Below, piece after piece: positions 41,409-60,975 of a stretch of 64,000 bases of DNA. How positions within the stretch are numbered: position 1 is the stretch's first letter; every line of letters starts with the position of its first letter. The notes below the pieces were generated by a model, which saw only the letters and a list, made by a program, of their open reading frames with translations, was not told where the DNA came from and did no database searches. This DNA comes from Clostridia bacterium (GTDB taxonomy: Bacteria > Bacillota > Clostridia > UMGS1883 > UMGS1540): positions 26,590 through 90,589 of the forward strand of contig JAZSDN010000042.1 of NCBI GenBank assembly GCA_045531205.1. Reading direction: 5' to 3'. The position numbers and the translations under genes were made by a program.

Positions 41409-41416
41409 ATATATTT

Positions 41417-41445: not shown

Positions 41446-41808
41446 TATTGTCAAAACTCGAGAGCAGTAATCTTCAGTTTTTTGAGCATCAATTCTGATT
41501 TTCTTCGAAAATATTTCACGGCGCGTGGTCTTTTGATTCAGACATTTTTGCCCGAAATGAGCATCAATTTCGCATGCGGTCGCATCCGTTTCTAACGATT
41601 CCGTCTGCTACATCATCATTTTAGCATCACTTGATTTCGGCAATTCCGCCGATTTCGGTTGTAGAGAGCAATTCTGCGAGAATATTTTTAATTCTCGCAG
41701 ATATTTTTTTGTCCAAATACAATTCGGCTTTTCTTTGGTTACTGTATATTAAAATTTGATACACCCTGAGTTTAAATTCCCAGGGTGTATTTTGGTGTTT
41801 CAGATTCT

Positions 41809-43023: not shown

Positions 43024-43213
43024 TATCTCACTTCCTTTATTTTGTATTACCATTTTGGCAACACAAACAATACCGTAAAGACCGTTACAAGTCAAGCGGT
43101 TTTGGCAAACAAATCTGCAAAGAATTTCAAAAGACATATAACAGTAATTTTATTGATATATAGTAAAAATTAAAGCTGTTTTATTTTGTGATGGTATTAT
43201 CATTAAAAAAATA

Positions 43214-44617
43214 GGCTCTATAATAAAAGTTGGGGTAACCAAGTAGAGCCTACGAAAAAATAATAAAAAAGGTAGAGCATATTTGGAAGAAATCCGTTAA
43301 AATGGAAATGACGAGTAACCATGAACGGAGAACCAAATATGCTCTACAAACATTTTACAGAAAAACTTCTCGGATTGCAAGGGTTAAATATCACAAATAT
43401 CGAGGAAAACGAAAAAAACATCTCAATATACGCAGAGTTGGAACGAAAAGAACATATATGTATCTGTTGCGGAGCGGTAACGGATATGATTCACGACTAC
43501 TGCACACAAGTAATCAAAGACATCTCGGCTTTCGGCAAGCTTGTAAATATCGTTTTACGAAAGCGAAGGTATCGATGTACTTGCTGTGGTAAAAGATTTT
43601 TTGAAGAAAATACATTTCTTCCTAAATATCATAGAATGACTAATCGTCTTGCAGCTTTTGTGATAGATAAACTCCGCGATGAACGCTCTTTCACAAGTGT
43701 AGCAAAAGAGGTTAACCTTTCGGTATCTACTGTTATCCGTATGTTTGATATCATCTCTTATCCTAAAGCCAAACTGAATACAGCTTTATCCGTTGACGAA
43801 TTTAAAGGAAACACAAACGGCGAAAAATACCAATGCATTTTAACAGATCCTATCAACAAGGTTGTTTTAGATATATTACCCGAGCGATACGGACACTATT
43901 TAACCAAATACTTTAAAAGCATACCACGAGAGGAACGGAAACAAGTAAAATACTTCGTAAGTGATATGTGGAGAACATATGCCGATACTGCCAATGTATG
44001 GTTTAAAGATGCAACTCTGATAATAGATAAATACCACTGGATAAGGCAAGCTATATGGGCATTTGAAAACATCCGAAAAAAAGAGCAAAAGAATCTTAGT
44101 CCCGAGCTTCGCAAATATTTCAAACGATCAAAGTCTCTGCTGATAAAGCGATATGATAAGCTCAAAGAAGAGCAAAGACAACAGGTTGATGTGATGCTTT
44201 ACTATTCTGCAAACATAAGCCGCGCTTATTGGTACAAAGAAGAATTCTTGAAAATATTAACTCACAAAGAACCGGAATTAGCTCAAAATGCATTGGCAGA
44301 ATGGGTGAAAAACGCGGAGCATTGCGGAATATTGCCGTTTGAAAAATGTGCTGATACTATTCGCAATTGGTATACAGGTATCACAAACTCTTTTTCTACC
44401 TCAATCACCAACGGCTTTACTGAAGGCTGTAACAACAAGATTAAAGTTCTTAAACGTAACGCGTACGGTTACAAGAATTTCAATAGATTCAGAAACCGTA
44501 TTTTACATATATTTTCCCATCAGCAGCTTCATAATCAACAAGCAGTCGTCTGATGACGACTGCCTGCCTAATCACTTTTTCATTTTAACTCTTTACCCCA
44601 ACTATTGACAAAGAGCC
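43214..44617 (+). mobile_element. ISL3-family insertion sequence (1404 bp) with imperfect 25-bp terminal inverted repeats and 8-bp target-site duplication AAAAAATA
   Basis: IRL GGCTCTATAATAAAAGTTGGGGTAA (43214-) against the reverse complement of IRR GGCTCTTTGTCAATAGTTGGGGTAA (ends 44617). Flanking 8-bp direct repeats AAAAAATA at 43206-43213 and 44618-44625. Confidence 0.8.
43339..44553 (+). CDS. tnp: ISL3-family transposase
   Basis: N-terminal zinc-finger ICICCGAVTDMIHDY...RYRCTCCGKRF. DDE_Tnp_ISL3-like body (DEFKGNTNGEKYQCILTD). Confidence 0.85.
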   Translation: MLYKHFTEKLLGLQGLNITNIEENEKNISIYAELERKEHICICCGAVTDMIHDYCTQVIKDISAFGKLVNIVLRKRRYRCTCCGKRFFEENTFLPKYHRMTNRLAAFVIDKLRDERSFTSVAKEVNLSVSTVIRMFDIISYPKAKLNTALSVDEFKGNTNGEKYQCILTDPINKVVLDILPERYGHYLTKYFKSIPREERKQVKYFVSDMWRTYADTANVWFKDATLIIDKYHWIRQAIWAFENIRKKEQKNLSPELRKYFKRSKSLLIKRYDKLKEEQRQQVDVMLYYSANISRAYWYKEEFLKILTHKEPELAQNALAEWVKNAEHCGILPFEKCADTIRNWYTGITNSFSTSITNGFTEGCNNKIKVLKRNAYGYKNFNRFRNRILHIFSHQQLHNQQAVV

Positions 44618-44658: not shown

Positions 44659-44871
44659 CTATACTTTAATTTTTAGCACGATTTTTAAAAATTTTTTGGT
44701 AACAGTTTTTATTGAAATGCCCGTTTTTAAGGGCATTTCAAGCGGCTCATAAAATGAACATTTTCCGTTTTTCCAACAGCTTATATACGGACAAGCTTCT
44801 GATCGCTTGTCCAGTTCGTAACTATCTTTACCTGTTTTGCATCTTGGACATATCTGTTTTTTCCAAATCAT
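44659..44871 (-). CDS. Small zinc-ribbon hypothetical protein
   Basis: MIWKKQICPRCKTGKDSYELDKRSEACPYISCWKNGKC. GGAGG RBS. ATG at 44871. Confidence 0.4.
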   Translation of the reverse strand: MIWKKQICPRCKTGKDSYELDKRSEACPYISCWKNGKCSFYEPLEMPLKTGISIKTVTKKFLKIVLKIKV

Positions 44872-45043
44872 ATCGCCGCCTCCTTTGCTGTTAATTTTCA
44901 AGGTTACCTTTCATCATCCCGACCTGCAACTGCTAACGCACAGTACATTGCTACAACAGAAAAAACTGCAACTATTCCAGCTATGATTCCAATAATAGTT
45001 TTCATAAATCTTGTCCTTTCTTTTTCAATTTTCTCTATTGTGC

Positions 45044-45625
45044 TTAGCTCTGGTCAGCATTTTTATTGCAAAATAGAGTAACTCGTGTTTTTCCACTATA
45101 TGTACAAGTATAGAGTACTAAATCATATCCACTATTTTGAACTTTCTCAACATCAGTTGGTTTTAGTACTTCCATTCTCGCAACACTATATGTATGCTTA
45201 TTCTTGCTTGTGTCTGTGAGAATGATTTCATCACCTATGTTGAGACTAGAGAGATTCCCAAAATGTTTTTTATAGTTATGAGCTGCAATTACTATATCGT
45301 CTGTATTGATACTACCAAATTGACGACATGGAGCAATTTTCAAACGCGCATAATCCCATTCTGATAACACGGGTAATTCTATTTCTATTTTAGGAATTTC
45401 AATAAATCCAATGTATTCATAACCATTTATATCAATTGTTATCTCATCGGAATCATTAGTTTCGTTATTATTCAGTTCACTGTTTTCCAAAGCACTCAAT
45501 ACATTCTCAGTTTCCTTATAAGACTGTTGTTCCTGATAATTATTATATAAAAATAGGCTTAGTGCTGAACAAATCAGCACTAAGCCAAATATAACAAATA
45601 TAGTGCCTATCCTACGAATATTCAT
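45044..45625 (-). CDS. srt: Sortase (transpeptidase) with N-terminal membrane anchor
   Basis: Catalytic TLxTC motif (LVLYTCTYSG). His in IAAHNYKKHFG. Arg in KTRVTLF. N-terminal TM IGTIFVIFGLVLICSAL. Start overlaps the stop of the upstream substrate gene. Confidence 0.8.
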   Translation of the reverse strand: MNIRRIGTIFVIFGLVLICSALSLFLYNNYQEQQSYKETENVLSALENSELNNNETNDSDEITIDINGYEYIGFIEIPKIEIELPVLSEWDYARLKIAPCRQFGSINTDDIVIAAHNYKKHFGNLSSLNIGDEIILTDTSKNKHTYSVARMEVLKPTDVEKVQNSGYDLVLYTCTYSGKTRVTLFCNKNADQS

Positions 45626-47004
45626 TATGATTTTTTCCTTTTTTTTAGTATAAGAAATAGGCCAGAAAGAAGGATAAGAAGACCTATTCCACCCAAAACA
45701 GGAATCGGCCAATTTAATTGTCCGGTTTGGATCAAAATGGCACTATTAGTTATATTTACTACATCGCCTGTTACTTTATAATACGGTGTGTATCCCTTCG
45801 GAATATTGACTTCTACAACCTTCCAATCTCCATGAGGGGAAAGATTATCCCATGTGTATGTCCAATTATTCCATTCTCCTAAATGTACTGTTTCGATTCC
45901 TTCTGCGCCGTTATATAGCTGAACAGTTACGCTGTCAGGTCTGTTACCTTCATCACTGTCATTCCATATCTTATTTACTGTCAGCTTTACAGGTTCTCCT
46001 TCATCTGGCACCGAAACCTCTGGCGGTGTATCAGTACCAGGTTCAGGATCATTTATAGGAGGATTATCTTCCTTTACATCGGGATCATCTTTGGGATCAG
46101 TTCCGGGCTTATCTTCCGGATCCTCTTCAGGTGGATTTGGTGGTTTTGGTGTATCAGACTTTTCAACATTGGTTATTATTGTTGTATTTCCGGTTGTCGA
46201 ATACTTCGCAGTATAACCATCCGGAACATCTGCTTCTTTTACACTCCATTTTGCCAACCTGCTTAATTTACTCCATGTGTACATCCATTGATTTTCTGCA
46301 TTTAATTCAATTGTTTCGTGGACTTTACCATTTTTGAGGAGGTTAACTGTAATGCTTTCTGGTCTGTCTTTACCGTCATCTTCCCAGAGTTTTCTAACGG
46401 TTAATTGACTGTTGTTTGTAGATGGTCCTGATGGTCGGTCGAATGCTTCGACAACGAAAATCCAATCAACCTCTCCTATTCTGTTAGCATAACGATTATC
46501 CAATTCTATAGGAACAGTTAATTCAACTTTTATCGTAGTAGATTCATTTCGATTAAACTGTCCCAATAAAGTGTTCTCAGATAGTTGGTTTTCCTTATCA
46601 GGTGAACCTTCGAAAATCAGTTTATCGCCATTCCATACTTTCATGGAAAGTTGCGAGAGAAAATCGTTCATAGACTCCAAAGTTTCTTCACCATTTACAA
46701 CTATCTCGCTGATAGGATTACTTTCATCATGTGATTTTGCTCGAATATATACCTTTATGTAGTCACAATCCGTTGCAGTGTTTTTTACAGTTATAGTTTC
46801 TGTTAAAACATCACCCGGCATTACGTTTTTGAAGTTCCGGAAGAGGTCTGTTTGTGAATAAATGCTTCCTGCACCAAAGTCGAACAAATCCTTTTTTCCT
46901 TTGTATGCAATCGTATGATTTTCCGCAAAAACAGGCAAGACAAAATTTAATGTCAAGACAAATGTAAGCAGAAAATATAACATTCTTTTACTTTTTAAAT
47001 GCAT
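45625..47004 (-). CDS. Surface protein: TasA-like N-terminal domain, two CnaB-type domains, and a C-terminal sorting signal with non-canonical LIQTG motif
   Basis: Sec signal ...VLPVFAENH. FRNFKNVMPGDVLTETITVKN resembles the TasA PGD motif region. Two LTVRKLWEDDGKDRPESITVNLLKNG...YTAKY and KLTVNKIWNDSDEGNRPDSVTVQLYNG...YTPYY CnaB repeats. C-terminus is LIQTGQLNWPIPVLGGIGLLILLSGLFLILKKRKKS (motif, hydrophobic stretch, basic tail). Confidence 0.7.
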   Translation of the reverse strand: MHLKSKRMLYFLLTFVLTLNFVLPVFAENHTIAYKGKKDLFDFGAGSIYSQTDLFRNFKNVMPGDVLTETITVKNTATDCDYIKVYIRAKSHDESNPISEIVVNGEETLESMNDFLSQLSMKVWNGDKLIFEGSPDKENQLSENTLLGQFNRNESTTIKVELTVPIELDNRYANRIGEVDWIFVVEAFDRPSGPSTNNSQLTVRKLWEDDGKDRPESITVNLLKNGKVHETIELNAENQWMYTWSKLSRLAKWSVKEADVPDGYTAKYSTTGNTTIITNVEKSDTPKPPNPPEEDPEDKPGTDPKDDPDVKEDNPPINDPEPGTDTPPEVSVPDEGEPVKLTVNKIWNDSDEGNRPDSVTVQLYNGAEGIETVHLGEWNNWTYTWDNLSPHGDWKVVEVNIPKGYTPYYKVTGDVVNITNSAILIQTGQLNWPIPVLGGIGLLILLSGLFLILKKRKKS

Positions 47005-47016
47005 TTTATTTCCTCC

Positions 47017-47592
47017 TTACTTACTTATCTGACCGTTGGTAACTGTTACACCCCAACTACTTTCTACTGCCTTTGTGGGTTTGCTTTGTATTGCAGATGC
47101 TAGGATTTCCACGCTAAGGCCGTAACCTTCCAAACCGCTTCCTTTAATGCTACAGTTTTCAATTAAAACTCCCGTTTCCTTCTGAGGAGAAACTGGCTTA
47201 GTGTAATAATAAAATCCATTTTTCTCAAGCCAGTCAGAATTATTTATGGTAATTGTATAATCCTTATCCTTTTGAGGCTCCATAGCGTATACATTACCTG
47301 CAGAATCTTTCCATGTTACAATTATAGCAGCACGAATGTAACTTTCTGTATCTCCGGTATTTAATACACGTACATTTGATTTGTCTACACTTGTACCATT
47401 TATAAATTTCTCTTCTACAACCTCACAAGCAACATTGGAATAATTAAAAGTGTTTTTTACTGAATCCGTCCGTGTAACTAAAAATGCCAATGTAGAGCCT
47501 GCCACAGCAGCAAAAATCGAAACTAATACAACGAGTATTATGCTTTTATTAAATCTTTGTTGTCTTCTTCTTGCGTGTTTGCCTCTACTCAT
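47017..47592 (-). CDS. TasA/camelysin-like protein with SipW-cognate-type signal peptide (fifth paralog)
   Basis: Signal ...FAAVAGSTLAFLVTRTDSVKNTF resembles the SipW-cognate class (GGT-x-A-[YF]-x-TD). Start overlaps the giant protein stop by 8 nt. Confidence 0.55.
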   Translation of the reverse strand: MSRGKHARRRQQRFNKSIILVVLVSIFAAVAGSTLAFLVTRTDSVKNTFNYSNVACEVVEEKFINGTSVDKSNVRVLNTGDTESYIRAAIIVTWKDSAGNVYAMEPQKDKDYTITINNSDWLEKNGFYYYTKPVSPQKETGVLIENCSIKGSGLEGYGLSVEILASAIQSKPTKAVESSWGVTVTNGQISK

Positions 47593-50500
47593 TAGTCTCG
47601 ACCTCCTCTTCACCAGATGTATCTGCTTTACTAGATGCATTTCCTTTACCAAATCTATTATCGCAATAAGCATTACCATCTAACCAAAATATTTTCGTCC
47701 TTTCGTTTTCAAAAGGAATCGCTGTTCCATCGGCATCGACAGAAACTTCTTTAATTGGGTCTTTTGGACTGTATCTCCAACTCCAATCGCTTATTTCTTT
47801 TACTTGATACTTACCTACAGGCAGATCCTTAATAGTTACACTATCGTTTCCATGGATGACTACTGTAATACTGATATTTGTATTGTTTGCATCAATACCT
47901 GTAACCTTAAAAATGAAACTTTGATTTTCGTCAATATCGTCAGCTCCCGACTTAGTTATGGTTAGATCAGCTAAAGCTCGTTTATAATAAAATGTATAAA
48001 CATTTAGCTCGGCCTTATCACCTTTCTCTATTTTTATATTAATTGAACCTGAATCACGAGAAGAAGTGTAGCCGTTAATTTGCTTTGCGTTTTTCACAAC
48101 CTGCGCACCATAACGGGCAATATCTCTTTCAGGTTCTGCAAGCACCTTATCTGTACCTTCCTCAACAAACCTGAACTCATACGGATACAGGTTTCTGTTA
48201 TAATACAGTTTTAGAACCAATCCTTCTGCTGTAACCGTACCAGATACTGTTGAGTTTCCTGTTTCAGGTGTAACATCTTTATCATTCGCAGTTGCACGGA
48301 TAAAATTGAAGCCATCAATCAGTAGGATAGATGCACTAAATTCGCCATTAATTGCAGTGTTTAAACTTGAAGTATTCTGATACACTGTATATCCTTCACC
48401 CTCTATATTTTGAATATAGTGGATTACTTGAACTGGAGCATGTTCAGTATCTTTAATATAATAAAAAGTAATTATGTTTTCCTGCTCATTGGCAGACAAC
48501 ACCAAGGTTTTCTGATAAGCATCAGGCATATATCCAGATATTATTTCAAAAGTCTCTGTTACAATGGCTTTAGTTGTCACAGAGTTTTTATCAAATTCGA
48601 GCTGTTCACCTGTCGCTTTATCAATATATCGCACTGTATAATTGACTTTATCTTTTGCAACATATACAAATGTAAATATGTTTTTCGAAGCATCATCCGC
48701 ACTCAGTGTAATGGAATGACTGCTTGTTTCGGGAAAATATCCTTCACGATACTCTTCATTAAGGTCATCTCCTGCTTTTGCAAGAAAAGTTTTTGTTGTT
48801 CCTGCCAATGCCTGACCTGTTGTTGAAGGTGCAATATAAATGAGTTTTTCTCCTTCTTCAACAGCATATTTAATTGTATAATTTACTAATACATTCGATG
48901 ACCATTTTCCATAAAGTACAAGGTCCTGATTAACAGGCATTGAAAAATCAAAAGCTCTTTCTTTGCCGTCACTTCCCTCGTAGAACCAACCCACAAATGA
49001 ATAACTGCCATTTGTAGGAGTTTCTGGTTTTTCTGCAAGGGATCCATGTGAAACTGTTTGAGTTTCACCTATCTGCTTATTAAGATCGTTAGTTTTGAAT
49101 ATCTTGACAGTATGTGTTTTTGGTGTCCATTTTGCATAGAGTGTTAAATCGTTTGCAGGCATCTTTACAGTCTCAAAATCAACCTTTGTATCACCGAAGA
49201 AGGGAGACTCGTACCAGCCTTCAAATACATATGCATCGGGTTCAAAATTTACAGGATAGTCTGGGTTAAAATTGTAACTCTTCAGAGGCGCCTCATACTG
49301 CACTCTGCCACCCGCATCAGATACAGTTGTACCATGATTGGAGAAAGTTAAGTTATAAGAAACACGATCATAATACAGATAATTCACATGGTCATAGCCA
49401 TTTCCAGAACCACCAAGTTTTGCGCTGTCTTGATTGTTCTGATAAGTACCAAACGCAGGATCCGCATTGCTCCGACTTCTGCTAAATCCGTCTATATTAT
49501 GGTATTCCTCTTCATAGGTAATATAATTAAAATTATGCTCAACGGACTTCATAAGTTTATATGTTTTACCATTGAATGTTCGGGTAGTTAATCCCGACAA
49601 TTCTTCACCATTGACAATTTCAACATAATAATATATCACACATTTCGTGCCTCGATTTTCACCAGTAAACGTTACATCATTGCCCGGCATAACGTCAAGC
49701 GTCTGCAATGCATAGCCATATGTATCGCCGTCTTTATCTGTCCATGAATATCCACTATATGAAGTACCATTTTCACTCACTATAGGAAAGTAGTGAGAAA
49801 TTTTTGACTCATATTTACGGTTAACTACCTTAACGATGCTTTTTGAGCTAGCATTTTTACAGCTGTTGTTGTGCGTATGTTCAATTTTTTCACAGTCATA
49901 ACAAACAGTGCTGTGAGTGTGTTCGTATCCATATGTACACTTATTTGTATTTGCTGGAGAGTAAGCACTATGATTGTGCCTCCTAGCATTACAACATTCA
50001 TCACAAGAATGTTGGTGTTCAGGCAAAGTACAAACAATCTTGCAGTTGTCATGAGAATGTTCCTCTAAAACGCAAAGTCCATCAGCTTCAAATATTAAGT
50101 TATATTTATTTCTTGTATAATAAACATTCACAACAGTTGAACCATCCCCCTGAACGGTAACATTTTCATCTGCATGAGAATATGTGAAGTGTTCATCATC
50201 TCTTTCAGAAAAATCACGTTCTTTATACTCAACACCATTGACTATCGTCCCGGATTCAGCTGGCACATTTTCTAACACACCAGCCTGAGAATAACCGTCA
50301 TCATCAGCATTTTCATACCAAAAAACAACATCAAAAGAAGTGTCTCCAACTGTCCACTGTGCCGTAAACCGTTTATTTTCTGCAGGCATGGTGTCAGGAA
50401 TTGGGCCGTCCCAACCTGTGAAAGAATAGCCAGGTCTGTTAGGTGTACCCACACTAATGGGTGTGCCATATCGGGCATAAATGGGTTCTACACCATATCC

Positions 50501-51946
50501 GCCACCCAAATCAAATGACATTAAATAATAATAACGATCATAATATATCTCTACTTCAGTACTTCCGTCTGCAGCAATTTCAAGAGTAGTATCATAGTTA
50601 TAAGCATAAAATCCTTTGTACTCTTTTTTTAGATTTTCACCAACTGTTGAACCCGTATAACCTTGCATCGTTTCGGTTTCGTCTAATATGTAATAATCAT
50701 TTTCTGCATTTTGTTTGTAATGATATACTTTAAATTCAACTTCTGCCGGATAGTATGTAACAGTATAAATTTCATCTTGTGTAATCGAAGAAATATCAAT
50801 AGTACAAGAATCCTCTTTGGGAGCAAATCCTTTTACCATAGGGTTTTGTATAGTCTCTTTTACCTCTGATCCTTTTGGAAATGTTCCGGACCATGACGGA
50901 GCTGCGATTTCGCCATTTTGATACACATAATTTATAATGACAGTATAGGTTTCAAGTTCACTTCCAGAATCTCCGTTTTCATCAGCAAGCATAACGCCAT
51001 TAACCTCGTCTGCATTTGAAAAAGTGCTTAATTTCATTATACTATATTCTGCATTCGCACCATTTTCAATTGGATTATTATCACCATCAAGGCTGTCATT
51101 CTCAATCGTTAATTCTGTGACATCTTCGTCATCACTGTGAATCTCATAATCTGTGGGACTTCCATTTTCTTGAGTTTCGTCTTCATCGAGTTTATCTTCT
51201 TCATACGGGATTACAGTTACTTCAATTGGGTCACCCTCAATTACCTTTGAGGATTTTCTTGTTGTAAGTCTTATTTTGGCTTGAAATTCATCTAGTACAG
51301 TAGCGACAACACCATATGATAGTAAAAATTCTGGTTCATCTGCTCCATAAATGTCAATCCAGGTTTCGTCAATGAAAATCTGCCATTGATAATCCACATC
51401 ACCAGACAAAGAACTTTCGCCAATGAGCTTTTTCTTCTCATATTGTGGCAACTCTATTTGTTCCCCAACTTCGTTACCTTCTTCATCAATAACAGTAATG
51501 TTGTCTTTTTCAGTTATCTCTATAATAAGTGAATCGTATGCATCAGCATCTTCGCCTAGGTAATTTTGAAATACCCAAGGATACTCAATTAATTTCTCCG
51601 GCGCCTCACAATCCGGAGCGGCCTCTACTTTATACCAAAGACAAGGTAAATCCCCTTCATTATTAGAAATATGGTAATCCGTAATAACAACTTTAAATCC
51701 TTCTTCCAAGTCTTCCTCAATAAGTTGATATTCTGTATCCCAAGATAAATTAGAAGGATCATCACTTACGGGGAAATAGTCATAGACATCAGTATTGAAT
51801 GTGGCTATACAACCAATATTCTTTTCATATTCAATTGTTTCTGAATATGCCATAGCAATAAGACTATTAAACAAACTTGTAACCAACATCGAAATTACGA
51901 GGAATACTGATATTGCCCTATTCTTTATATTGTTTTCTCTAATCAT
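47585..51946 (-). CDS. 1453-aa secreted surface protein with Listeria-Bacteroides (Flg_new) repeats, a His/Cys-rich repeat region and a C-terminal CnaB/prealbumin-like domain
   Basis: N-terminal signal ending SLIAMAYSE. Repeats GYSFTGWDGPIPDTMPAENKRFTAQWT, YVFEGWYESPF...LTLYAKWTP and YSFVGWFYEG...LVLYGKWS. EHSHDNC, EHQHSC, EHTHSTVC and EHTHNNSC cluster. C-terminus ...VTIKDLPVGKYQVKEI... with no LPXTG. Confidence 0.7.
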   Translation of the reverse strand: MIRENNIKNRAISVFLVISMLVTSLFNSLIAMAYSETIEYEKNIGCIATFNTDVYDYFPVSDDPSNLSWDTEYQLIEEDLEEGFKVVITDYHISNNEGDLPCLWYKVEAAPDCEAPEKLIEYPWVFQNYLGEDADAYDSLIIEITEKDNITVIDEEGNEVGEQIELPQYEKKKLIGESSLSGDVDYQWQIFIDETWIDIYGADEPEFLLSYGVVATVLDEFQAKIRLTTRKSSKVIEGDPIEVTVIPYEEDKLDEDETQENGSPTDYEIHSDDEDVTELTIENDSLDGDNNPIENGANAEYSIMKLSTFSNADEVNGVMLADENGDSGSELETYTVIINYVYQNGEIAAPSWSGTFPKGSEVKETIQNPMVKGFAPKEDSCTIDISSITQDEIYTVTYYPAEVEFKVYHYKQNAENDYYILDETETMQGYTGSTVGENLKKEYKGFYAYNYDTTLEIAADGSTEVEIYYDRYYYLMSFDLGGGYGVEPIYARYGTPISVGTPNRPGYSFTGWDGPIPDTMPAENKRFTAQWTVGDTSFDVVFWYENADDDGYSQAGVLENVPAESGTIVNGVEYKERDFSERDDEHFTYSHADENVTVQGDGSTVVNVYYTRNKYNLIFEADGLCVLEEHSHDNCKIVCTLPEHQHSCDECCNARRHNHSAYSPANTNKCTYGYEHTHSTVCYDCEKIEHTHNNSCKNASSKSIVKVVNRKYESKISHYFPIVSENGTSYSGYSWTDKDGDTYGYALQTLDVMPGNDVTFTGENRGTKCVIYYYVEIVNGEELSGLTTRTFNGKTYKLMKSVEHNFNYITYEEEYHNIDGFSRSRSNADPAFGTYQNNQDSAKLGGSGNGYDHVNYLYYDRVSYNLTFSNHGTTVSDAGGRVQYEAPLKSYNFNPDYPVNFEPDAYVFEGWYESPFFGDTKVDFETVKMPANDLTLYAKWTPKTHTVKIFKTNDLNKQIGETQTVSHGSLAEKPETPTNGSYSFVGWFYEGSDGKERAFDFSMPVNQDLVLYGKWSSNVLVNYTIKYAVEEGEKLIYIAPSTTGQALAGTTKTFLAKAGDDLNEEYREGYFPETSSHSITLSADDASKNIFTFVYVAKDKVNYTVRYIDKATGEQLEFDKNSVTTKAIVTETFEIISGYMPDAYQKTLVLSANEQENIITFYYIKDTEHAPVQVIHYIQNIEGEGYTVYQNTSSLNTAINGEFSASILLIDGFNFIRATANDKDVTPETGNSTVSGTVTAEGLVLKLYYNRNLYPYEFRFVEEGTDKVLAEPERDIARYGAQVVKNAKQINGYTSSRDSGSINIKIEKGDKAELNVYTFYYKRALADLTITKSGADDIDENQSFIFKVTGIDANNTNISITVVIHGNDSVTIKDLPVGKYQVKEISDWSWRYSPKDPIKEVSVDADGTAIPFENERTKIFWLDGNAYCDNRFGKGNASSKADTSGEEEVETNE

Positions 51947-52559
51947 TTACCAAATTCTCTCCTTCCGAATTGCTTGGCCAACCCTTGATATCTTTAACAC
52001 TTCCACCTTCGGGAATAGGATTGTTTGCTGTTTGCACCGCCTGTGCGTTGATAATTATTTTAGCTGTACAATTTTGATATTCATTTCCCATATTGGGGTT
52101 GAATTTCACTTCTTTAAAAAGTTCCTCTGTTAGCTGTTCAGGTTCAACGGCTGTTTTATAATAATAATATCCGTCACCGCCATCTATCCATCCATCAAGG
52201 ACAGAGTATTCAATGACTTTTTTGTTATCTCCTATTGTCAGGGGAAGAGATTCACCAGCAGGATTTGTAATAGTGGATTCTACATTAATCCGTATCCAAG
52301 CCTCATTGCTTCCTGCGTTTTTTACTTGTACAATTTTAGAGACTGTTTTCCCGGGCATTACACCTTTAATTCCTTCTTTTGGAAAATCAACTAAAACATC
52401 ATTACTCCCCTGTGTTTTTTCTATTACTTCAATATTAACACCTCCGGAGGTTATTATATTGTGTGCCACCTCTTCGTCAGTAAAATATGCTAGCGTACCT
52501 GATATTGCAACAGATAAACATATACCAACAATAGCATACAGAAATATTCTTTTCTTCAT
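51939..52559 (-). CDS. TasA/camelysin-like protein (paralog 4)
   Basis: MKKRIFLYAIVGICLSVAISGTLAYFTDEE signal. GVMPGKTVSKIVQVKNAGSNEAW motif. GGAAGGAG RBS. Confidence 0.65.
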   Translation of the reverse strand: MKKRIFLYAIVGICLSVAISGTLAYFTDEEVAHNIITSGGVNIEVIEKTQGSNDVLVDFPKEGIKGVMPGKTVSKIVQVKNAGSNEAWIRINVESTITNPAGESLPLTIGDNKKVIEYSVLDGWIDGGDGYYYYKTAVEPEQLTEELFKEVKFNPNMGNEYQNCTAKIIINAQAVQTANNPIPEGGSVKDIKGWPSNSEGENLVND

Positions 52560-52607
52560 ATTGTCGCTCCTTCCAATGACATTCTGCATATTATTAATTT
52601 GTTAGTT

Positions 52608-52661
52608 GCAGTTCACATAAGAACATTTGAACCGAAGCTCAAATGCTCTTATGTGAACTGC
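52608..52661 (-). promoter_or_regulatory. Large intercistronic stem-loop (23-bp stem, 22 of 23 paired) between TasA-like genes 3 and 4
   Basis: GCAGTTCACATAAGAACATTTGA-accgaagc-TCAAATGCTCTTATGTGAACTGC. No U-tract follows on the transcribed strand, so an mRNA stability or processing element is more likely than a full terminator. Confidence 0.5.
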
Positions 52662-52724
52662 TCCAAAACGGAGCAGTCCTGAACAAGACACTTTAGTTTG
52701 TAAGTTAATGTACGAATTTGTTTT

Positions 52725-53462
52725 TTATTGAGCAGGAACAACTGCTGTCCATTCCACATCATATGTACCGGGAACACCAAACTGGGTATTCAAAGCTTCA
52801 TAAGCTTCTTCAAATCCTGCTTTCTGGCCACCTTCCGCAGCAACAAGAATCTTTGGTGTTTCACCAAGAACATTGATAATTTCTGTCATCTGCTCATTGG
52901 TAACTTCCTTATCAAGATATACCTTGTTGATTGCAGTTGTAGCTGTAGTAACTTCGCTACCTAAAATACTTTCGTATGTGGCAACATAAACATTGTATAA
53001 GATTCCATCAATCTCCTGCTGATACATATTCCATGCACCACCATTTTCAGGATAACCAGGACCGTATGATGAATTGCCGTCTACATTTGTTTTGTGCCAA
53101 TTCCACTGACCGTCTGCCAATGATTCTTTATTAAAGTTCCAATGAAGTGTGTTGTTGTATGCTGCAAACTGTGGTTGATCTTCACTACCGCTATCAAGCA
53201 TTGAAGGAATAGCGATATGAACACGAACATATGCATCTTCTGAACCTGTATTTTTTACTGTAACTTCTTTTTTGATGTCAATACCAGGCATAAGTTTAGC
53301 ATTTTCTGAATCGAATTCTTCTATCAGATCAATTTTTACATCTCCAGTTGTAAATACATTAGTTGCTGTCTCTGTATCTGTGAAGTAAGCCAATGTGCCA
53401 CCGATGATTGCAACAGCAGCCAATGAAATTACTACACAAAGGGCTAAAATTTTCTTTTTCAT
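52725..53462 (-). CDS. TasA/camelysin-like protein (paralog 3; candidate major subunit)
   Basis: AAVAIIGGTLAYFTDTE SipW-cognate signal. LMPGIDIKKEVTVKNTGSEDAY. Followed by the stem-loop. Confidence 0.65.
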   Translation of the reverse strand: MKKKILALCVVISLAAVAIIGGTLAYFTDTETATNVFTTGDVKIDLIEEFDSENAKLMPGIDIKKEVTVKNTGSEDAYVRVHIAIPSMLDSGSEDQPQFAAYNNTLHWNFNKESLADGQWNWHKTNVDGNSSYGPGYPENGGAWNMYQQEIDGILYNVYVATYESILGSEVTTATTAINKVYLDKEVTNEQMTEIINVLGETPKILVAAEGGQKAGFEEAYEALNTQFGVPGTYDVEWTAVVPAQ

Positions 53463-53515
53463 GACTATAATCCTTTCGTCAAATTTTCTTTTACACTCAC
53501 CAAGGAATACTTAGA

Positions 53516-54142
53516 TTAGTTTGCATTGTTTGCAATCCCTTGCGCTTTTGCCCATGCTTCTGCAGGTGTAAATGGTGTGTTATTTGTTTTATTGAGTTGC
53601 ACTGCATAGGCTGTGAATGTGAGCGTAGGCTGGTTTTCACCATTGATTGCATTCATCTGTGCTTTTGTAACTTCAGGTCTTACAAGAACTTGGTTGTCTT
53701 CCCAAGTGAAATTCCCATCCTCACTACTTGTGTACTCGCCTGATGCTAAAAGTGAAAATTCCCTTGTTGTATCTTCTGCCTTAACTGTTCTGTAGTAAAC
53801 ACCATCTTCAAGTTTAGTCCAATCTGCAACTATTTTATAATCCGCCAAATATGTATCGTAGTTTATTGACTTGTCAATCTTTACAAACAGATAACAGTCT
53901 TCACTACCCTTTGCAACAGAAACTTTAGGATCCTTGTCAATAGTATGACCGGGAATCATCTTATAATCTTCTGTCGTCTCGTTTAAGGTAATTTCGATGT
54001 CGCTGTCGGTAAACACATTTGATACGGGCTTAGTATCATCAATTAACCACGCCATTGTACCACCGATTGTACCGCCTAAAATAAGTACCGCCGCCAGAAT
54101 AACTGCAAAAGCCTTATAGCTAATTCCAACATTCTTCTTCAT
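53516..54142 (-). CDS. TasA/camelysin-like protein (paralog 2)
   Basis: GGTIGGTMAWLIDDTK signal. YKMIPGHTIDKDPKVSV. Confidence 0.6.
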   Translation of the reverse strand: MKKNVGISYKAFAVILAAVLILGGTIGGTMAWLIDDTKPVSNVFTDSDIEITLNETTEDYKMIPGHTIDKDPKVSVAKGSEDCYLFVKIDKSINYDTYLADYKIVADWTKLEDGVYYRTVKAEDTTREFSLLASGEYTSSEDGNFTWEDNQVLVRPEVTKAQMNAINGENQPTLTFTAYAVQLNKTNNTPFTPAEAWAKAQGIANNAN

Positions 54143-54218
54143 GTCATTTCCCTCCTTTCCTGTTGATATTTATTTCATTAGAACGAAATTGTGTTTCATC
54201 CTTAGAAAACATATTTAA

Positions 54219-54860
54219 TTATTTTTTAAATGCTGCCCATGCTTCGTCTGCATTAGCAAATCCATCTGCCTGAATTGCGTGTGCTTCGACCTCAATTTTA
54301 AGCTCTGAAATTGTTGCAAGCTGTTCTTTAGTAATATCACCAGGAACCTTGATCGTTTCAAACAAGTCATCAAGCACAACATCTCCGTCTGGTGCTGCAA
54401 CAGTCTCTTTGTAACGGAACTCATAAGAACGAGTGTCATCTGCATTTTCTGTCTCGCCATAAAGAGTCCATTCTGCACTTACACCGCCAAAGAAATCACT
54501 AAGAGGTAAGCCATTTGGTGCAAAAATAGCATCAAGATCTTTTTGCTCGTTGATAGTAACAATCATTCTTACATATGATTTTTCGCTATCTTCTAAAACT
54601 GTCACTGTGGGATCTTTAAAGTATGTGTGTCCCGGAATCAAGTGGTATTCATTTTCTGCAACACGATTTCCATGATCTGTTGCATATGTACCATCAAGAT
54701 TCACTTTGGCTTCGTCAAGTTCAATATTGACTTTACCAACTGTGAATGTGTTTGTTACTGTATCGCTTGATGTGAGATATGCCATAGTGCCAAGAACAGA
54801 AGCGACTACGAGCAATACCGCACAAAAAGTGAATAGTAACGCTTTCTTTGTTGTTTTCAT
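54219..54860 (-). CDS. TasA/camelysin-like protein (paralog 1)
   Basis: VVASVLGTMAYLTSSDT signal. HLIPGHTYFKDPTVTV. Confidence 0.6.
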   Translation of the reverse strand: MKTTKKALLFTFCAVLLVVASVLGTMAYLTSSDTVTNTFTVGKVNIELDEAKVNLDGTYATDHGNRVAENEYHLIPGHTYFKDPTVTVLEDSEKSYVRMIVTINEQKDLDAIFAPNGLPLSDFFGGVSAEWTLYGETENADDTRSYEFRYKETVAAPDGDVVLDDLFETIKVPGDITKEQLATISELKIEVEAHAIQADGFANADEAWAAFKK

Positions 54861-54909
54861 ACGAAAACCTCCTTAAAAATAATTTATAGGGAGCCTTGCG
54901 GCATTGCCC

Positions 54910-55485
54910 TCATTTTGATGAGACTTCTGTCTCATTATCTAAGTCGGAAGCGGCATCATTTTCTTTTTCTTTTTCACTTTTGCTGTCAAATAATAAATCA
55001 GGAATAAAAAGCAAAAGAAGCAACACCGCTCCGACAGAGATAGCAATATAGGTTCCGGGTGGATTTTGGATAAAATCTGCAAAATATCCGAGGTATGGAA
55101 TTGAGAATATTGGCGAACCAATAACATTCTTATAATGAACAAGGCCTCCATCCACCGAATCGTTTGCATCACCTTTGGTTTTATATCTAATTACTGTTGA
55201 TTCTTCACTGTCTGGAACCACTTCAACAATACGATGCGTAGCAACCGTATCTTCATCAAGCATAAAGGTTATAGGATCTCCTGCCTGCAGTTTGGATGTG
55301 TCAACCTTTTTTACATATATTAGTGATCCAACATGATATGTGGGTTCCATCGAACCGGATAATACTGTAAACACCTGTAAACCAACAAATCTTACTCCAA
55401 CAAGCAGAATTGATATAATAACAGCTATTGTTACGATAACAGTTGTAGCTGCATTCCATATTTTTTTAATCTTTTGTTCCATCAT
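54910..55485 (-). CDS. sipW: Signal peptidase I, SipW (archaeal/eukaryotic-type)
   Basis: SGSMEPT catalytic Ser box. ...ATHRIVEV... GDANDSVD. N-terminal and C-terminal TM segments. Confidence 0.8.
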   Translation of the reverse strand: MMEQKIKKIWNAATTVIVTIAVIISILLVGVRFVGLQVFTVLSGSMEPTYHVGSLIYVKKVDTSKLQAGDPITFMLDEDTVATHRIVEVVPDSEESTVIRYKTKGDANDSVDGGLVHYKNVIGSPIFSIPYLGYFADFIQNPPGTYIAISVGAVLLLLLFIPDLLFDSKSEKEKENDAASDLDNETEVSSK

Positions 55486-55724
55486 ATAACCTCATTTTTA
55501 ACTCTTTCATAATTCGAAAAGAATTTTGCAGCTTCTTCCAAAGTTTCAAAATTCACTGTCTTTTGGTATAGATATTCTGCCATATCATTTAATTCTGATA
55601 ATGAATAATCAGCGACATCAATCTTTCTCATTATTGTTTTTGCCAATTCATTCTCTGTTCCAAAACGCAAATCTGATATGTATTGACATCCAATTCTGGT
55701 TTTGAGTTCTTCAAATAAATCCAT
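55482..55724 (-). CDS. Small acidic cytoplasmic hypothetical protein (80 aa)
   Basis: ORF sits between the regulator and sipW. No recognisable domain. Confidence 0.35.
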   Translation of the reverse strand: MDLFEELKTRIGCQYISDLRFGTENELAKTIMRKIDVADYSLSELNDMAEYLYQKTVNFETLEEAAKFFSNYERVKNEVI

Positions 55725-55753
55725 ATTTGCCTCCGTCTTTCTAATTAAAGAAA

Positions 55754-55993
55754 TTATCTTCTGTAAATTTTTAATATGATTCTACCGATAATTGGAATAT
55801 GACTAATATAAAATTCTCTTAGTATGTGTTTCCAATACTCTCGCTCTTCGCCATCGCTTCTTTGAATCTCCATTTTTATGTAGCTTCGTTCATCCTGATA
55901 TGGAATCCAAACATTAACTATGAAAGCCAAAACGATTAATGTGCCAAATAAAAGTAAAAATATTAATAATAAAAAATCGTATGTCTCATCCAT
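55754..55993 (-). CDS. Small single-pass membrane protein
   Basis: MDETYDFLLLIFLLLFGTLIVLAFIVNVW TM helix. Confidence 0.35.
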   Translation of the reverse strand: MDETYDFLLLIFLLLFGTLIVLAFIVNVWIPYQDERSYIKMEIQRSDGEEREYWKHILREFYISHIPIIGRIILKIYRR

Positions 55994-56055
55994 ATTTGCC
56001 TCCGGTGCCATATCATTAGAATGTGCTTTTTATTTATGAGTGATGTTCATTCTGT

Positions 56056-56613
56056 TTATTTTTGTAGTTTATTTACTGTTCTTTCATACAGATTTTCAAG
56101 TAACATTTGAGTTTTTTCCCTATCATCCCATATAGCGTAATCAACAACAAACGAAATAATAGAATAAATAAATGTTTCTGCATCCGCATACGAACAACCG
56201 AACAGCGAAACAAGTTCATTTGCGTATTTGTCATAAAAGAACCTAAAGTCCTTTGCCTTATCTCTCATTCTTTCGCCAAACACAGGACTTGTTGTTAATT
56301 GAATGGCTGTCCTCAGCTCATACTTGTATTTTTCCACTTCATCGAGTACGGTGTCAAAATAATGACGAATGTTGGCCCTGTTGTCCAAGGTATAACCAAT
56401 CAGTGCATCAACCACCTTTGACAGTCCATATTTTCCTGCACTTATCCAAATGTCGTCTTTATTCTCAAACCAATGATAGAGACTGCTTTGAGCAAGTTTT
56501 GTTTCCCTGCATAATTCTCCAATTGAAGCATGTGCCAACCCGGTTGTAAGCAAGTACTGCCATGTGGTTTTTATGATTTCCTTTTTTCTGTCGGACAGAT
56601 TATAAGTATCCAT
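56056..56613 (-). CDS. TetR/AcrR-family transcriptional regulator
   Basis: N-terminal HTH TTGLAHASIGELCRETKLAQSSLYHWFENKDD. Start at the internal ATG (56613); the upstream extension in the ORF track overlaps the operator. Confidence 0.7.
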   Translation of the reverse strand: MDTYNLSDRKKEIIKTTWQYLLTTGLAHASIGELCRETKLAQSSLYHWFENKDDIWISAGKYGLSKVVDALIGYTLDNRANIRHYFDTVLDEVEKYKYELRTAIQLTTSPVFGERMRDKAKDFRFFYDKYANELVSLFGCSYADAETFIYSIISFVVDYAIWDDREKTQMLLENLYERTVNKLQK

Positions 56614-56690
56614 TTCTTCCTGCCCTTTCTTGAAATTCTTGTCCCATATTTCGACAAAGTACTGTTCATTACAAAAGATGTTAAAAAAAT

Positions 56691-56718
56691 CACCTTGCAA
56701 CATAATTGAAATTATGTG
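56691..56718. promoter_or_regulatory. Palindromic operator-like site (CAACATAATT-GA-AATTATGTGG) downstream of the TetR promoter
   Basis: 10-bp inverted arms within the 29-bp repeat CACCTTGCAACATAATTGAAATTATGTGG. The minus-strand promoter TTGACA-17/18-TATAAT lies at about 56741-56775. Confidence 0.5.
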
Positions 56719-56844
56719 GGGAAAGACATCGCAGGTACATACTAAAAGCTTAGTAATTATAACACTTTTAGGAGGCGTTTGTCAATGGTTTGCAACTATT
56801 TTATAAAAATTCGTTATAATATTGAAAAACAGACATAACAAAAA

Positions 56845-57008: not shown

Positions 57009-57848
57009 TTATAATCGTAAAAGTCCTAATTTTTGTATTTGTCTGCGGTGTACCTCACCTGTTTCCATAGTGTAGATACGGGTAGTGTTTACGCTTGAAT
57101 GACCGAGAATATCAGCGAGGCGTACAATATCTTTTTGTATGCTGTAATAGGTCCGTGCGAACAAATGACGGAGGTTGTGCGGGAACACTTTTTCTCTTGA
57201 AACTCCTGCATCTTCGCAAAGTGCTTTCATCATTTTCCATATAGAACTTCTATCAAGCGGCTTTCCTGTTTTGGTAATGAATATAGAACCGCTTGTTATT
57301 TTTTGCCCTCTTGCGTATCCCAGCAGCATTTTGCAAAGGTCTTTAGGGAGAATTACGACTCGCATTTTTCCTTTACAATTTATATTTGCTTTGCAATTTT
57401 TCGCAGCCTCAACCGTAATTGCAGACAATTCTGACACCCTGATTCCGCTTGAACAAATTGTCTGCATAAGATAATAAAGCCTTTCATTTTTCTTTTGCGT
57501 TGCAGCCACAAGTAATTTTTCGTATTCAGCCTTTGTAAGTTCCTTGCTTCTCTCTGCAAAAATCTGTTTTTGGATTTTGAGCATTTTAACCTTCAATCCG
57601 TGCCATTCGTTGTACGCAAAGAAACTGTTGAGAGATGATAAGACGGAATTTACAGATGCCGGAGCATAATGTTCTATTAATCCCTGTTTATATCTCAGCA
57701 CAAGAGCTTTGTCTATTTCTGCGCTGTTGCACCATTCCATAAAAGCTGTTATGTCCCGAATATACTTTTCCAGGGTTGAGGCTGACTTTTCTTCGTCTAT
57801 CAAGTGTTTTCTAAATTTTTGTATTAGTATGTTTGTGATTTTTTTCAT
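57009..57848 (-). CDS. Tyrosine recombinase (XerD-like small integrase)
   Basis: HNLRHLFARTYY...LGHSSVNTTRIYT catalytic motifs. 279 aa. Confidence 0.8.
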   Translation of the reverse strand: MKKITNILIQKFRKHLIDEEKSASTLEKYIRDITAFMEWCNSAEIDKALVLRYKQGLIEHYAPASVNSVLSSLNSFFAYNEWHGLKVKMLKIQKQIFAERSKELTKAEYEKLLVAATQKKNERLYYLMQTICSSGIRVSELSAITVEAAKNCKANINCKGKMRVVILPKDLCKMLLGYARGQKITSGSIFITKTGKPLDRSSIWKMMKALCEDAGVSREKVFPHNLRHLFARTYYSIQKDIVRLADILGHSSVNTTRIYTMETGEVHRRQIQKLGLLRL

Positions 57849-57933
57849 ATTTAGTCAACTCCTTTATTCTATTTTAACACTATTTTCAGAATATATAAGA
57901 GTTGTCAATAATTTGCGTTTTAAATTTTGCATA

Positions 57934-58155
57934 TTAAAAGGCGATTGTTATTTCGTTATCCGAAATACAGTCGCCTTCTTCATACATTTTCTTTGCCATA
58001 AGCAATGCGTGCTTGACATAGAGAATATTTAGTTGTTCTTTTATTTCTTTTGATTTTATACCTTGTTGAACCATCCTGAATATTTCAGCAACCACAGCAC
58101 TTTCAATTCCGTATTTGTCGCCGTGCATAATCTCTTCCAAAGTGTACTTTGCCAT
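57934..58155 (-). CDS. Small hypothetical protein
   Basis: ORF MAKYTLEEIMHGDKYG... sits between the RHH gene and the recombinase. Confidence 0.35.
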   Translation of the reverse strand: MAKYTLEEIMHGDKYGIESAVVAEIFRMVQQGIKSKEIKEQLNILYVKHALLMAKKMYEEGDCISDNEITIAF

Positions 58156-58217
58156 CCACACCACCTCCTTGTAACACAAACAATATCACAAGAAAGATAG
58201 CAAGTCCACGAAGGATT

Positions 58218-58583
58218 TTACAATTTTCCATGTCTTTTCTTAACATTTTCAATTGCCATCTCTTCAATGTCTTCCATGTAGTACTGCGTATAGGCTCCAC
58301 TCATAATCATCGTTTGCTTTTCGATGCTAACAGCGAATTTGAAAAGCATATCAACGACTCTGTCGGTATGACCTGCAATTGTAGAATCTACCGCTTGAAC
58401 CAACAGTTTATTCATGTATGTACCTATGCTATCATATTGAAGTTTCGAGAGGTATTCTTCGATAGCTTCACCGCAAAATGCACTCTCACTTTTGTAGCCA
58501 AGGTCCTCAACATAATTTTTAATTTGTCTTTGTACCCCGATAGGAACATTGAAAGTCATCTTTACTTTTCTGTTCTTCTTCAT
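58218..58583 (-). CDS. Ribbon-helix-helix-like DNA-binding protein (candidate relaxosome accessory protein)
   Basis: N-terminal beta-strand then helix pattern KMTFNVPIGVQRQIKNYVEDLGYKSESAF. Lies directly downstream of the relaxase. Confidence 0.4.
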   Translation of the reverse strand: MKKNRKVKMTFNVPIGVQRQIKNYVEDLGYKSESAFCGEAIEEYLSKLQYDSIGTYMNKLLVQAVDSTIAGHTDRVVDMLFKFAVSIEKQTMIMSGAYTQYYMEDIEEMAIENVKKRHGKL

Positions 58584-58601
58584 TATATTTTCACCTCCTT
58601 A

Positions 58602-59729: not shown

Positions 59730-59789
59730 AATTTCACACTCCAATCTTAAAAATTCTTGTAATTTTGAAGACACCTGTTTTAACACCTG

Positions 59790-60959: not shown

Positions 60960-60975
60960 AGTGTAAATTCACCTC

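Follow-up and report, generated by a model that had tools for sequence, protein, structure and literature searches.

A SipW/TasA-like gene cluster of a Clostridia bacterium that may encode a surface fibre tethered to the cell wall by a TasA-fold anchor and its own sortase

Fibres of the TasA superfamily have so far been described as sortase-independent matrix scaffolds of Bacillus or as membrane-anchored pili of archaea, and the locus described here raises the question whether such a fibre can also be coupled to a sortase. The locus lies in a stretch of 64,000 nucleotides (nt) from a Clostridia bacterium (assembly GCA_045531205.1, contig JAZSDN010000042.1, positions 26,590 to 90,589), which is called the window and to which all coordinates refer. 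Between 45044 and 56703 its minus strand encodes a TetR-like regulator, two small open reading frames (ORFs), a SipW-type signal peptidase, five TasA/BsaA-like proteins (T1 to T5), a giant protein of 1453 amino acids (aa), an anchor protein that carries a sorting signal, and a sortase (Table 1). The original prediction, made from the letters of this DNA, had read SipW, the five paralogues, the giant, a TasA-CnaB chimera and the sortase as one minus-strand operon; the ORFs and the profile searches agree with it, every ORF that it named being present in the ORF map at the same coordinates and on that strand. In our reading the product of the operon is a TasA/BsaA-superfamily fibre on the cell surface, which a TasA-fold anchor and a dedicated sortase tether to peptidoglycan, and we give this a probability of about 0.68. 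The core of the idea, a SipW/TasA-like fibre coupled to a sortase through a base subunit with a TasA fold and a sorting signal, is well supported by sequence comparison.

The anchor begins with an ordinary signal peptide (aa 1-27), which is followed by the TasA-fold domain (aa 28-190), a CnaB domain, a proline-rich linker, a second CnaB domain and the sorting signal. Its C-terminus, LIQTGQLNWPIPVLGGIGLLILLSGLFLILKKRKKS, is tripartite (motif, hydrophobic segment and basic tail) and non-canonical in having Ile instead of Pro. None of 49 members of the domain family matched Peptidase_M73 in Pfam, the NCBIfam match of the window anchor was limited to the LPXTG anchor region, and the anchor-family profile found no TasA among PDB sequences, which is why a fold comparison was used for this domain. 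An initial hhalign run with only the five window paralogues aligned the MPGD motif alone (84%). With profiles of orthologues, T4 and the anchor aligned over 118 columns (97.0%, E 1.2e-10), including the common motifs VMPG...V.N...Y.R and GNEY.N, and T4 is the closest relative of the anchor domain. On this profile alignment the domain is best regarded as a divergent member of the TasA superfamily. The TasA-like fold predicted for the N-terminal domain of the 45625-47004 product is thus upheld by both the fold comparison and the alignment to T4, and so is the predicted chimera of such a domain with two CnaB domains and a sorting signal. The chimera is nevertheless not unusual, since an anchor length of 400-430 aa is more frequent than any other in the 80 best-matching loci; short forms without CnaB exist too. 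More than 100 homologues of aa 28-200 were found, most of them 205-300 aa long and built of a signal peptide, the domain, a short linker and a sorting signal, and fewer with Cna_B. In a full-database search the anchor profile recovered 3134 cluster representatives at E<=1e-3 and 587 at E<=1e-30.

The ATGA start of the sortase gene overlaps the stop codon of the anchor gene. At least 95% of 50 orthologues keep residues H117, C175 and R182 of the enzyme. It scores under the cutoff of every NCBIfam sortase class, the best being class C (NF033745, 52.6 bits against a cutoff of 160 bits), and its nearest PDB sequence is 2kw8, the class D enzyme of B. anthracis (E 1e-7). A sortase gene stands next to the anchor gene in 49 of the 52 loci whose anchor ends in LI[QPDH]TGQ, mostly with xNWP after it, but in none of the 17 with an xPxTG[DERA] ending (Fisher p 2e-13). 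In about 1.3 Mb of related loci LIxTGQ is confined to anchors (53/53 cases), and the shaft subunits carry no sorting signal, so that the anchor is its sole bearer in the window as in all 53 related cases. The sortase and LIQTGQxNWP are probably a cognate, single-substrate pair. Collinearity, co-variation with the LIxTGQ signal and the conserved H/C/R residues thus tie the sortase to the genes upstream, as had been predicted. The NWP may be part of the signal that the sortase recognises. Two loci with LIQTGQ anchors and no adjacent sortase (L016 and L018) also lack the following NWP (LIQTGQPIAPILL...).

For comparison among genomes the ORFs of 82 loci were labelled by jackhmmer with the window proteins as seeds, and synteny was counted in the 45 loci with at least 9 kb of upstream flank. 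In all 45 the genes lie on one strand in the order SipW-T1-T2-T3(x0-4)-T4-Giant-T5-Anchor-(Srt), the copy number of T3 ranging from 0 to 4. SipW and T4 were each found in 44 of these loci, T5 in 42, the giant in 41, T1 in 38, T2 in 35 and T3 in 27. The gene that follows T4 is invariably the giant or, in loci without one, the anchor, and T5 invariably stands between giant and anchor. In the four giant-less loci with full upstream flank T5 is missing as well and T4 lies directly against the anchor, whose C-terminus is a transmembrane (TM) segment with no sorting motif. The gene neighbourhood is therefore conserved across Clostridia. In a scan of one genome per species, anchor relatives were found in at least 374 species genomes, which is a lower bound because a single peptide pattern was used. 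The carriers belong mostly to Oscillospiraceae, Lachnospiraceae, Christensenellales and Anaerovoracaceae and include the cultured Laedolimicola ammoniilytica, Brotocaccenecus cirricatena and Hominifimenecus sp. rT4P-3; the closest is a metagenome-assembled genome (MAG) of Feifaniaceae with 79% identity.

The window SipW shows the motifs SGSMEP, THRIV and GDAN and scores 120 bits with the SipW equivalog NF046067, under its cutoff of 190 bits, so it should be called a SipW-type enzyme and not an orthologue of the Bacillus one. The SipW-type N-terminus GGT-x-A-[YW]-[FL]-TD...N-x-F..G.V.I.L.E is common to all five T classes; in T2 and T5 it was seen in the orthologue alignments (42-72 orthologues). 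T1 to T5 are mutually homologous over their full length (hhalign with orthologue profiles, 99-100% probability). Together with the TIGR04088 matches of T1, T3 and T4 and the TIGR04090 match of T3, this confirms the five paralogues as TasA/camelysin-like proteins with SipW-cognate signals. The intermolecular isopeptide residues of BsaA, N35/E56/K74, have been tested by mutation (PMC11580942). Their N/E/K equivalents are 89-100% conserved within every T class, and because all five classes keep this Asn-Glu-Lys triad the joints between T subunits are probably locked by an intermolecular Asn-Lys isopeptide. Polymerisation would proceed by exchange of the N-terminal donor strand, and T3 is the candidate for the major shaft subunit.

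Table 1. Features of the fibre locus in the window. Profile cutoffs: TIGR02228, 51.85 bits; TIGR04088, 19 bits; TIGR04090 (BsaA family), 60 bits; TIGR01167, 15.9 bits.
Feature	Position	Strand	Particulars
Sigma-70 consensus promoter	56756..56785	-	TTGACA-18-TG-TATAAT; 12/12 match, extended -10; pattern match only
TetR-like regulator	56056..56703	-	TetR_N E 3e-4, below cutoff
orf85	55754-56011	-	one predicted TM helix; no match in family searches
orf80	55482-55724	-	4-nt overlap with SipW start; no match in family searches
SipW-type (archaeal/ER-type) signal peptidase I	54910..55485	-	TIGR02228 96.3 bits; Peptidase_S26
T1, TasA/BsaA-like subunit	54219..54860	-	TIGR04088 30.1 bits; triad N37/E50/K82
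T2, TasA/BsaA-like subunit	53516..54142	-	triad N42/E55/K70
T3, BsaA-family subunit	52725..53462	-	TIGR04088 42.5 bits; TIGR04090 77.6 bits; triad N35/E48/K65
Perfect 25-bp stem-loop, T3-T4 intergenic	52608..52661	-	-51.9 kcal/mol, z -7.8; no U-tract after it
T4, TasA/BsaA-like subunit	51939..52589	-	TIGR04088 31.3 bits; triad N44/E57/K85
Giant modular adhesin candidate, 1453 aa	47585..51946	-	ordinary signal peptide, Flg_new repeats, Cys/His-rich segment
Giant, C-terminal CnaB-type domain (aa 1325-1416)	47699..47974	-	conserved in all orthologues; core pLDDT (predicted local distance difference test) about 90
Giant, C-terminal tail TKIFWLDGNAYCDNRFGKG	47642..47698	-	19 residues; conserved W-L-x-G-x(5,6)-N-x-[FWY]
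T5, TasA/BsaA-like subunit	47017..47592	-	likely start MSRGK; triad N76/E89/K100
Anchor, 459 aa, TasA-fold/2xCnaB/LIQTGQ	45625..47004	-	two Cna_B E 7e-30; TIGR01167 21 bits
Anchor, sorting signal LIQTGQLNWP (motif LIQTGQ)	45718-45735	-	followed by TM segment and KKRKKS tail
Sortase, 194 aa	45044..45628	-	start MNIRRIG; Pfam Sortase E 1.5e-16; H117/C175/R182

The giant carries no sorting signal. The Listeria-Bacteroides (Flg_new) repeats ascribed to it beforehand were recovered as Flg_new profile matches. The SipW-type signal seen in its 'AMAYSE' was rejected, as the motif is not conserved, the orthologues have ordinary signal peptides and TIGR04088 gives no match. A dense Cys/His-rich segment (CVLEEHSHDNCKIVCTLPEHQHSCDECC...HTHNNSC, aa about 622-700, window about 49849-50083), which may bind metal, is covered by approximately 8-10 of 42 orthologues. 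Conservation across orthologues is confined to the last 110 aa or so. An AlphaFold 2 (AF2) model gives aa 1325-1416 as a confident beta-sandwich, whose fold matches are the CnaB domains of tip or minor pilins (PitA, Cpa, FctB, GBS52 and BcpA), and the motifs DLTITK, Y.V.E and F.N.R suggest an intramolecular isopeptide. The mean pLDDT of this model of the C-terminus is 75, the tail has no resolved structure, and the alignment behind it is shallow because the homologue search gave only 5 proteins. A TasA-like acceptor domain in the giant was also considered and rejected, the conserved C-terminal domain having the CnaB fold. The tail itself has low pLDDT and is unstructured in the monomer model. 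Its spacing equals that of the T donor strand, [YW][FL]..x(5,6)N-x-F, and between 8 and 29 residues, most often 13, follow the W-L-x-G of giant tails. When a hidden Markov model (HMM) built from 191 T donor strands was run against the last 30 aa of 1814 ORFs, giant tails were the top 4 hits and 7 of the top 12, and we regard the tail as a candidate donor-strand mimic. Among 9 sampled loci the N-terminal modules of the giant are VWA in five and Flg_new in two, and the position may thus be that of a swappable adhesin with VWA or Flg_new modules.

A strong structure is kept at the position of the T3-T4 stem-loop in 22 of 27 related loci, and in the comparison of loci no other intergenic gap is as long as that ahead of T4 (median 147 nt) or as strongly structured (median minimum free energy -59.5 kcal/mol). 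Downstream of it the genes T4-Giant-T5-Anchor-Srt overlap or are spaced by 12-15 nt. The hairpin probably sets the expression of the shaft genes apart from that of the tip and base genes, and it looks like a stoichiometry or mRNA-stability element. At the other end, the promoter upstream of TetR is the likely start of the transcription unit. The original prediction placed the operon under the TetR regulator, and the comparison does not support this part: none of the 82 related loci, the closest relative (L003, the Feifaniaceae MAG) included, yielded a TetR match, and the regulator would be a local, non-conserved addition. Homology with L003 spans 57235 to 45064 and skips roughly 55500-56650, with an identity of 77-79% over the main blocks and of 72-79% in the flanks of the skipped block. 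TetR, orf85 and orf80 are all missing from L003, and their block seems either to have been inserted locally ahead of sipW or to have been deleted in L003; relatives of orf80 were found in only about 4 other loci. Downstream of the sortase a small Cys-rich ORF (44659-44901, CPRC...C...C...C) has neither relatives in the other loci nor a family match and probably stands outside the fibre system.

In the mechanism that we propose, SipW would cleave the special signal peptides of T1-T5 and free their donor strands, [YW][FL]TD...N-x-F, by exchange of which the subunits would polymerise into a fibre with isopeptide-locked joints. T1-T3, encoded upstream of the hairpin, would be the abundant shaft components, with T3 the possible major subunit. 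T4, giant, T5, anchor and sortase, whose genes are tightly packed or translationally coupled, would probably be produced at low output; these distal genes would supply the components of which a fibre needs about one each. The giant would be a swappable adhesin joined to the fibre by its C-terminal CnaB domain and tail and, because the terminal tail mimics a donor strand, would form the donor-only end. The anchor, with its ordinary signal peptide and no canonical donor strand, would be the acceptor-only end and terminate growth of the fibre; its CnaB/proline stalk would span the wall, and LIQTGQxNWP would be cut by the dedicated sortase and linked to peptidoglycan. A linear chain needs one donor-only and one donor-less component, and giant and anchor would supply exactly such a pair. 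The pair fits the base-growth model of BsaA, in which the free N-terminus of the older subunit inserts into the newly secreted one (PMC11580942). The predicted wall-anchored TasA-type fibre with a chimeric base has in its favour the comparative evidence of synteny, of sortase/signal co-variation and of the TasA-fold anchor; polymerisation and assembly, isopeptide locking, polarity, the role of the tail, subunit order and wall linkage are the parts that we infer, and polarity, subunit order and tail role are the least secure of them.

Several observations weigh against this reading. The anchor has Glu/Gln at the position of the isopeptide Lys of the T proteins and its possible catalytic Glu is not conserved, so that the last joint may be non-covalent, or else may be made through K59, D53 and D65, which are invariant in the anchor. 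The mature N-terminus of the anchor is about as long as that of T3, and in the monomer model it is folded back in cis; for this reason an acceptor-only anchor is not proven. The matches of the giant tails to the donor-strand HMM are individually weak (best E 0.014) and are not independent, because the giants are mutually homologous. Moreover, in C. perfringens strain 13 the BsaA oligomers are membrane-associated and not wall-linked, and srtB is dispensable (PMC11580942); this strain is without the LPXTG variant (PMC11580942). A more far-reaching form of the proposal can only be put forward tentatively and is in our opinion doubtful. It would make the system a widespread class of appendages of gut Clostridia ('SipW-sortase pili'), with a covalent chain from adhesin to wall in which the Asn of the giant tail forms an isopeptide with the first subunit, the five subunits follow in fixed order and a donor-less terminator sits on peptidoglycan, and with a new LIQTGQxNWP sortase subfamily.

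The proteins could instead form a biofilm matrix that is mostly released, with the anchor as nucleator or occasional tether only and the giant as an independently secreted factor like BsaC, in which case there would be no tip-to-base pilus. A matrix of this kind has been reported for BsaA in C. perfringens strain 13 and for TasA in Bacillus. Most BsaA polymer is extracellular and BsaC is a secreted monomer; T3 scores above the cutoff of the BsaA family model, and a giant without sorting signal and an anchor without acceptor Lys suit such a matrix. We still consider it unlikely, as five non-interchangeable classes in a fixed order and a single donor-less, wall-anchored TasA-fold protein suit an ordered appendage better; in addition, the distal genes are tightly coupled behind the hairpin, and what is conserved in the giant is a pilin-type CnaB domain with its tail and not the binding modules. 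The sortase might also be a pilin-polymerising, class C-like enzyme that joins the LIQT threonine to a protein lysine, in the CnaB domain of the giant or in another anchor, and not to peptidoglycan. This appears quite unlikely: class C gives the best NCBIfam match and is represented among the PDB relatives, the giant ends in a pilin-like CnaB domain and the anchor contains others, but the score of 52.6 bits is far under the cutoff and the closest PDB relative is of class D. Furthermore the xPxTGD anchors do without a dedicated sortase, which argues for housekeeping-type wall anchoring of the same protein family, short anchors lack any CnaB domain, and there is one substrate per locus.

Weak matches of T2-T4 to Pfam Peptidase_M73 would allow the T proteins to be secreted metalloproteases of the camelysin type instead of structural subunits. 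We find this very unlikely indeed, since these matches cover only the N-terminal signal and the first strands, those to the BsaA family and the SipW-cognate signal are stronger, and the N-E-K triad fits a polymerisation mechanism. TasA and its fibres, in their solved structures, are structural jelly-rolls, and to our knowledge no protease site is present in them. Next to no weight, finally, can be given to the view that a sortase with an LPXTG-like protein and a SipW/TasA matrix operon are two unrelated systems brought together by chance or by shuffling of mobile elements, in spite of the many mobile-element genes in the window (integrase, ISL3, MobL relaxase and a second recombinase). It is effectively refuted by the strict collinearity in dozens of species from several Clostridia families and by the anchor, itself of TasA fold and homologous to T4; neighbouring genes, moreover, overlap or lie 12 nt apart. 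The tethered TasA/BsaA-type fibre remains the reading that we prefer.

The nearest described system is the bsa operon of C. perfringens, which shares with the window a SipW, BsaA-family subunits with strand exchange and the N-E-K isopeptide, and a neighbouring sortase. In most strains it has an LPXTG-bearing BsaB-like gene beside srtB, wall anchoring having been called 'speculative' (PMC11580942), and its BsaC is a VWA protein (PMC11580942), which resembles the VWA giants of many related loci. It differs in having two subunit classes whereas five fixed classes are present here. The anchors here, many of them with a CnaB stalk, would make up a TasA-fold family of their own that has no annotation; the sortase gene, co-directional here, overlaps that of the anchor, and its product is paired with the non-canonical LIQTGQxNWP; the giant has a conserved CnaB domain and a donor-like tail; and there is no two-component system. 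The tapA-sipW-tasA operon of B. subtilis and the TasA/CalY/CapP system of B. cereus are alike in SipW processing, the TasA jelly-roll and donor-strand exchange, and in having an accessory protein, TapA, which initiates the fibre by strand donation and also attaches it to the cell. These Bacillus systems are sortase-independent (PMC13082335), and they differ also in the absence of the N-E-K triad, in their one or two subunit types, in having no large adhesin and in non-covalent anchoring.

The archaeal Tafi loci (TafA/C/D/E/F/G) encode a signal peptidase, major and minor pilins, a tip protein and an anchor with a TM segment plus jelly-roll (PMC12337348). Bacterial TasA-superfamily loci have been noted to contain often LPXTG anchors and sortases, and AlphaFold 3 (AF3) donor-strand models that include the C. 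amylolyticum anchor are given (AbpX preprint, bioRxiv 10.64898/2026.01.04.697558). The Tafi, ABP and AbpX loci share with the one described here a dedicated signal peptidase, jelly-roll pilins of a major and a minor kind, a tip protein that varies, a jelly-roll anchor and a regulator. Tafi differs in its twin-arginine translocation (Tat) pathway pilins and TM-helix anchor, and AbpX in a signal peptidase of ten TM helices with a DUF5305 partner where a small SipW is found here; the LIQTGQ/sortase pair, the CnaB stalk and the C-terminal module of the giant are not described in either paper (PMC12337348; bioRxiv 10.64898/2026.01.04.697558). With sortase-assembled pili of the SpaA, RrgB and PitA/PitB type the system shares wall anchoring by a sorting signal, a VWA or other tip adhesin, the tip-shaft-base logic and CnaB domains with probable intramolecular isopeptides. 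Their shaft is joined by sortase transpeptidation, whereas strand exchange is expected here, where shaft subunits have neither sorting signal nor pilin-motif lysine and the sortase falls under every class cutoff. The likeness to chaperone-usher pili (Fim/Pap) is one of workings only: an ordered, strand-joined heteropolymer with subunits of Ig-like or jelly-roll fold, a two-domain tip adhesin, adaptor and terminator subunits, and a hairpin after the major-subunit gene that sets the stoichiometry. There is no chaperone or usher here, the host is Gram-positive, sequence and fold are unrelated, and the polarity of the strands may differ.

The original prediction held that no such architecture had been described, and this is true only in part. 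The concept already exists in the literature, because two preprints mention LPXTG anchors and sortases beside TasA-like genes (PMC11580942; bioRxiv 10.64898/2026.01.04.697558). We found no published description of the conserved nine-gene cluster from SipW to sortase, of its breadth or of the anchor family, nor of the LIQTGQxNWP/sortase pairing, the triad in five classes, the C-terminal module of the giant or the hairpin; 'LIQTG' as a sorting motif is absent from the searchable literature.

Some loci depart from the common pattern. Six contigs from MAGs labelled Candidatus Saccharibacteria (L046, L047, L054, L055, L061 and L066) carry a minimal variant, SipW-T-T-T4-Anchor, without giant, T5 and sortase, in which the anchor has a terminal TM helix and no sorting motif. 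Four of them are the giant-less loci with full upstream flank described above, and two (L046 and L055) are shorter contigs with the same T4-anchor end. This variant is either a real membrane-anchored form of the candidate phyla radiation (CPR) or a recurring binning artefact. The preprint on the CPR 'Pam' pilus does not mention TasA, SipW or LPXTG and names sortase only in a general introductory sentence, and for this reason no link of that pilus to the fibre system is drawn. Clostridia-type clusters are also borne by MAGs labelled Alloprevotella, Bacteroidaceae, Raoultibacter and Akkermansia (L026, L034, L039 and L076, respectively). In L026 the gene order is that of L023 and L024, with nearly equal ORF lengths. 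These four are probably mis-binned contigs and not evidence of the system in Gram-negative bacteria. One contig (L080) has two tandem clusters, the first from SipW to the anchor and the second from SipW to a giant at the edge of the locus. In L002 (10749-20756) a second S26 peptidase comes directly after the cluster, together with a classical sortase-pilus locus that encodes two further sortases and a SpaA/GramPos_pilinBB protein of 1899 aa, so that two types of appendage are co-located.

The surroundings of the operon in the window bear on its predicted place on a tRNA-Trp island next to an integrase and an insertion sequence (IS). On one side (41335-44553) there are indeed a tRNA-Trp (41335-41408), an adjacent tyrosine integrase and an ISL3 transposase, and on the other (57009 to 61191) a second tyrosine recombinase, a MobL relaxase and HTH_36 and HTH_17 (excisionase-like) proteins, which makes an association of the operon with mobile elements plausible. 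The boundaries of the island were not found: a search of the window at up to 3 mismatches gave no further att-like copy of the tRNA-Trp 3' end, and the far boundary may lie outside the window. The IS/integrase flank is not common to L003. Further on, at 61000-64000, the GC content is 0.29 against about 0.36 in the operon, and LRAT-like and UbiA-family genes are present.

If the proposal is true, the chemistry of strand exchange would here be combined with a swappable adhesin and with anchoring in a Gram-positive wall. The large TasA-fold family to which the anchor belongs (about 3,100 cluster representatives) has no Pfam or NCBIfam model and could be named, and the LIQTGQxNWP/sortase pair could serve as an orthogonal ligation tool. 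A testable role is also offered for BsaB-LPXTG, SrtB and BsaC of C. perfringens. Moreover, hardly any adhesion machinery is known from the hundreds of gut and rumen species of Clostridia in which the cluster occurs.

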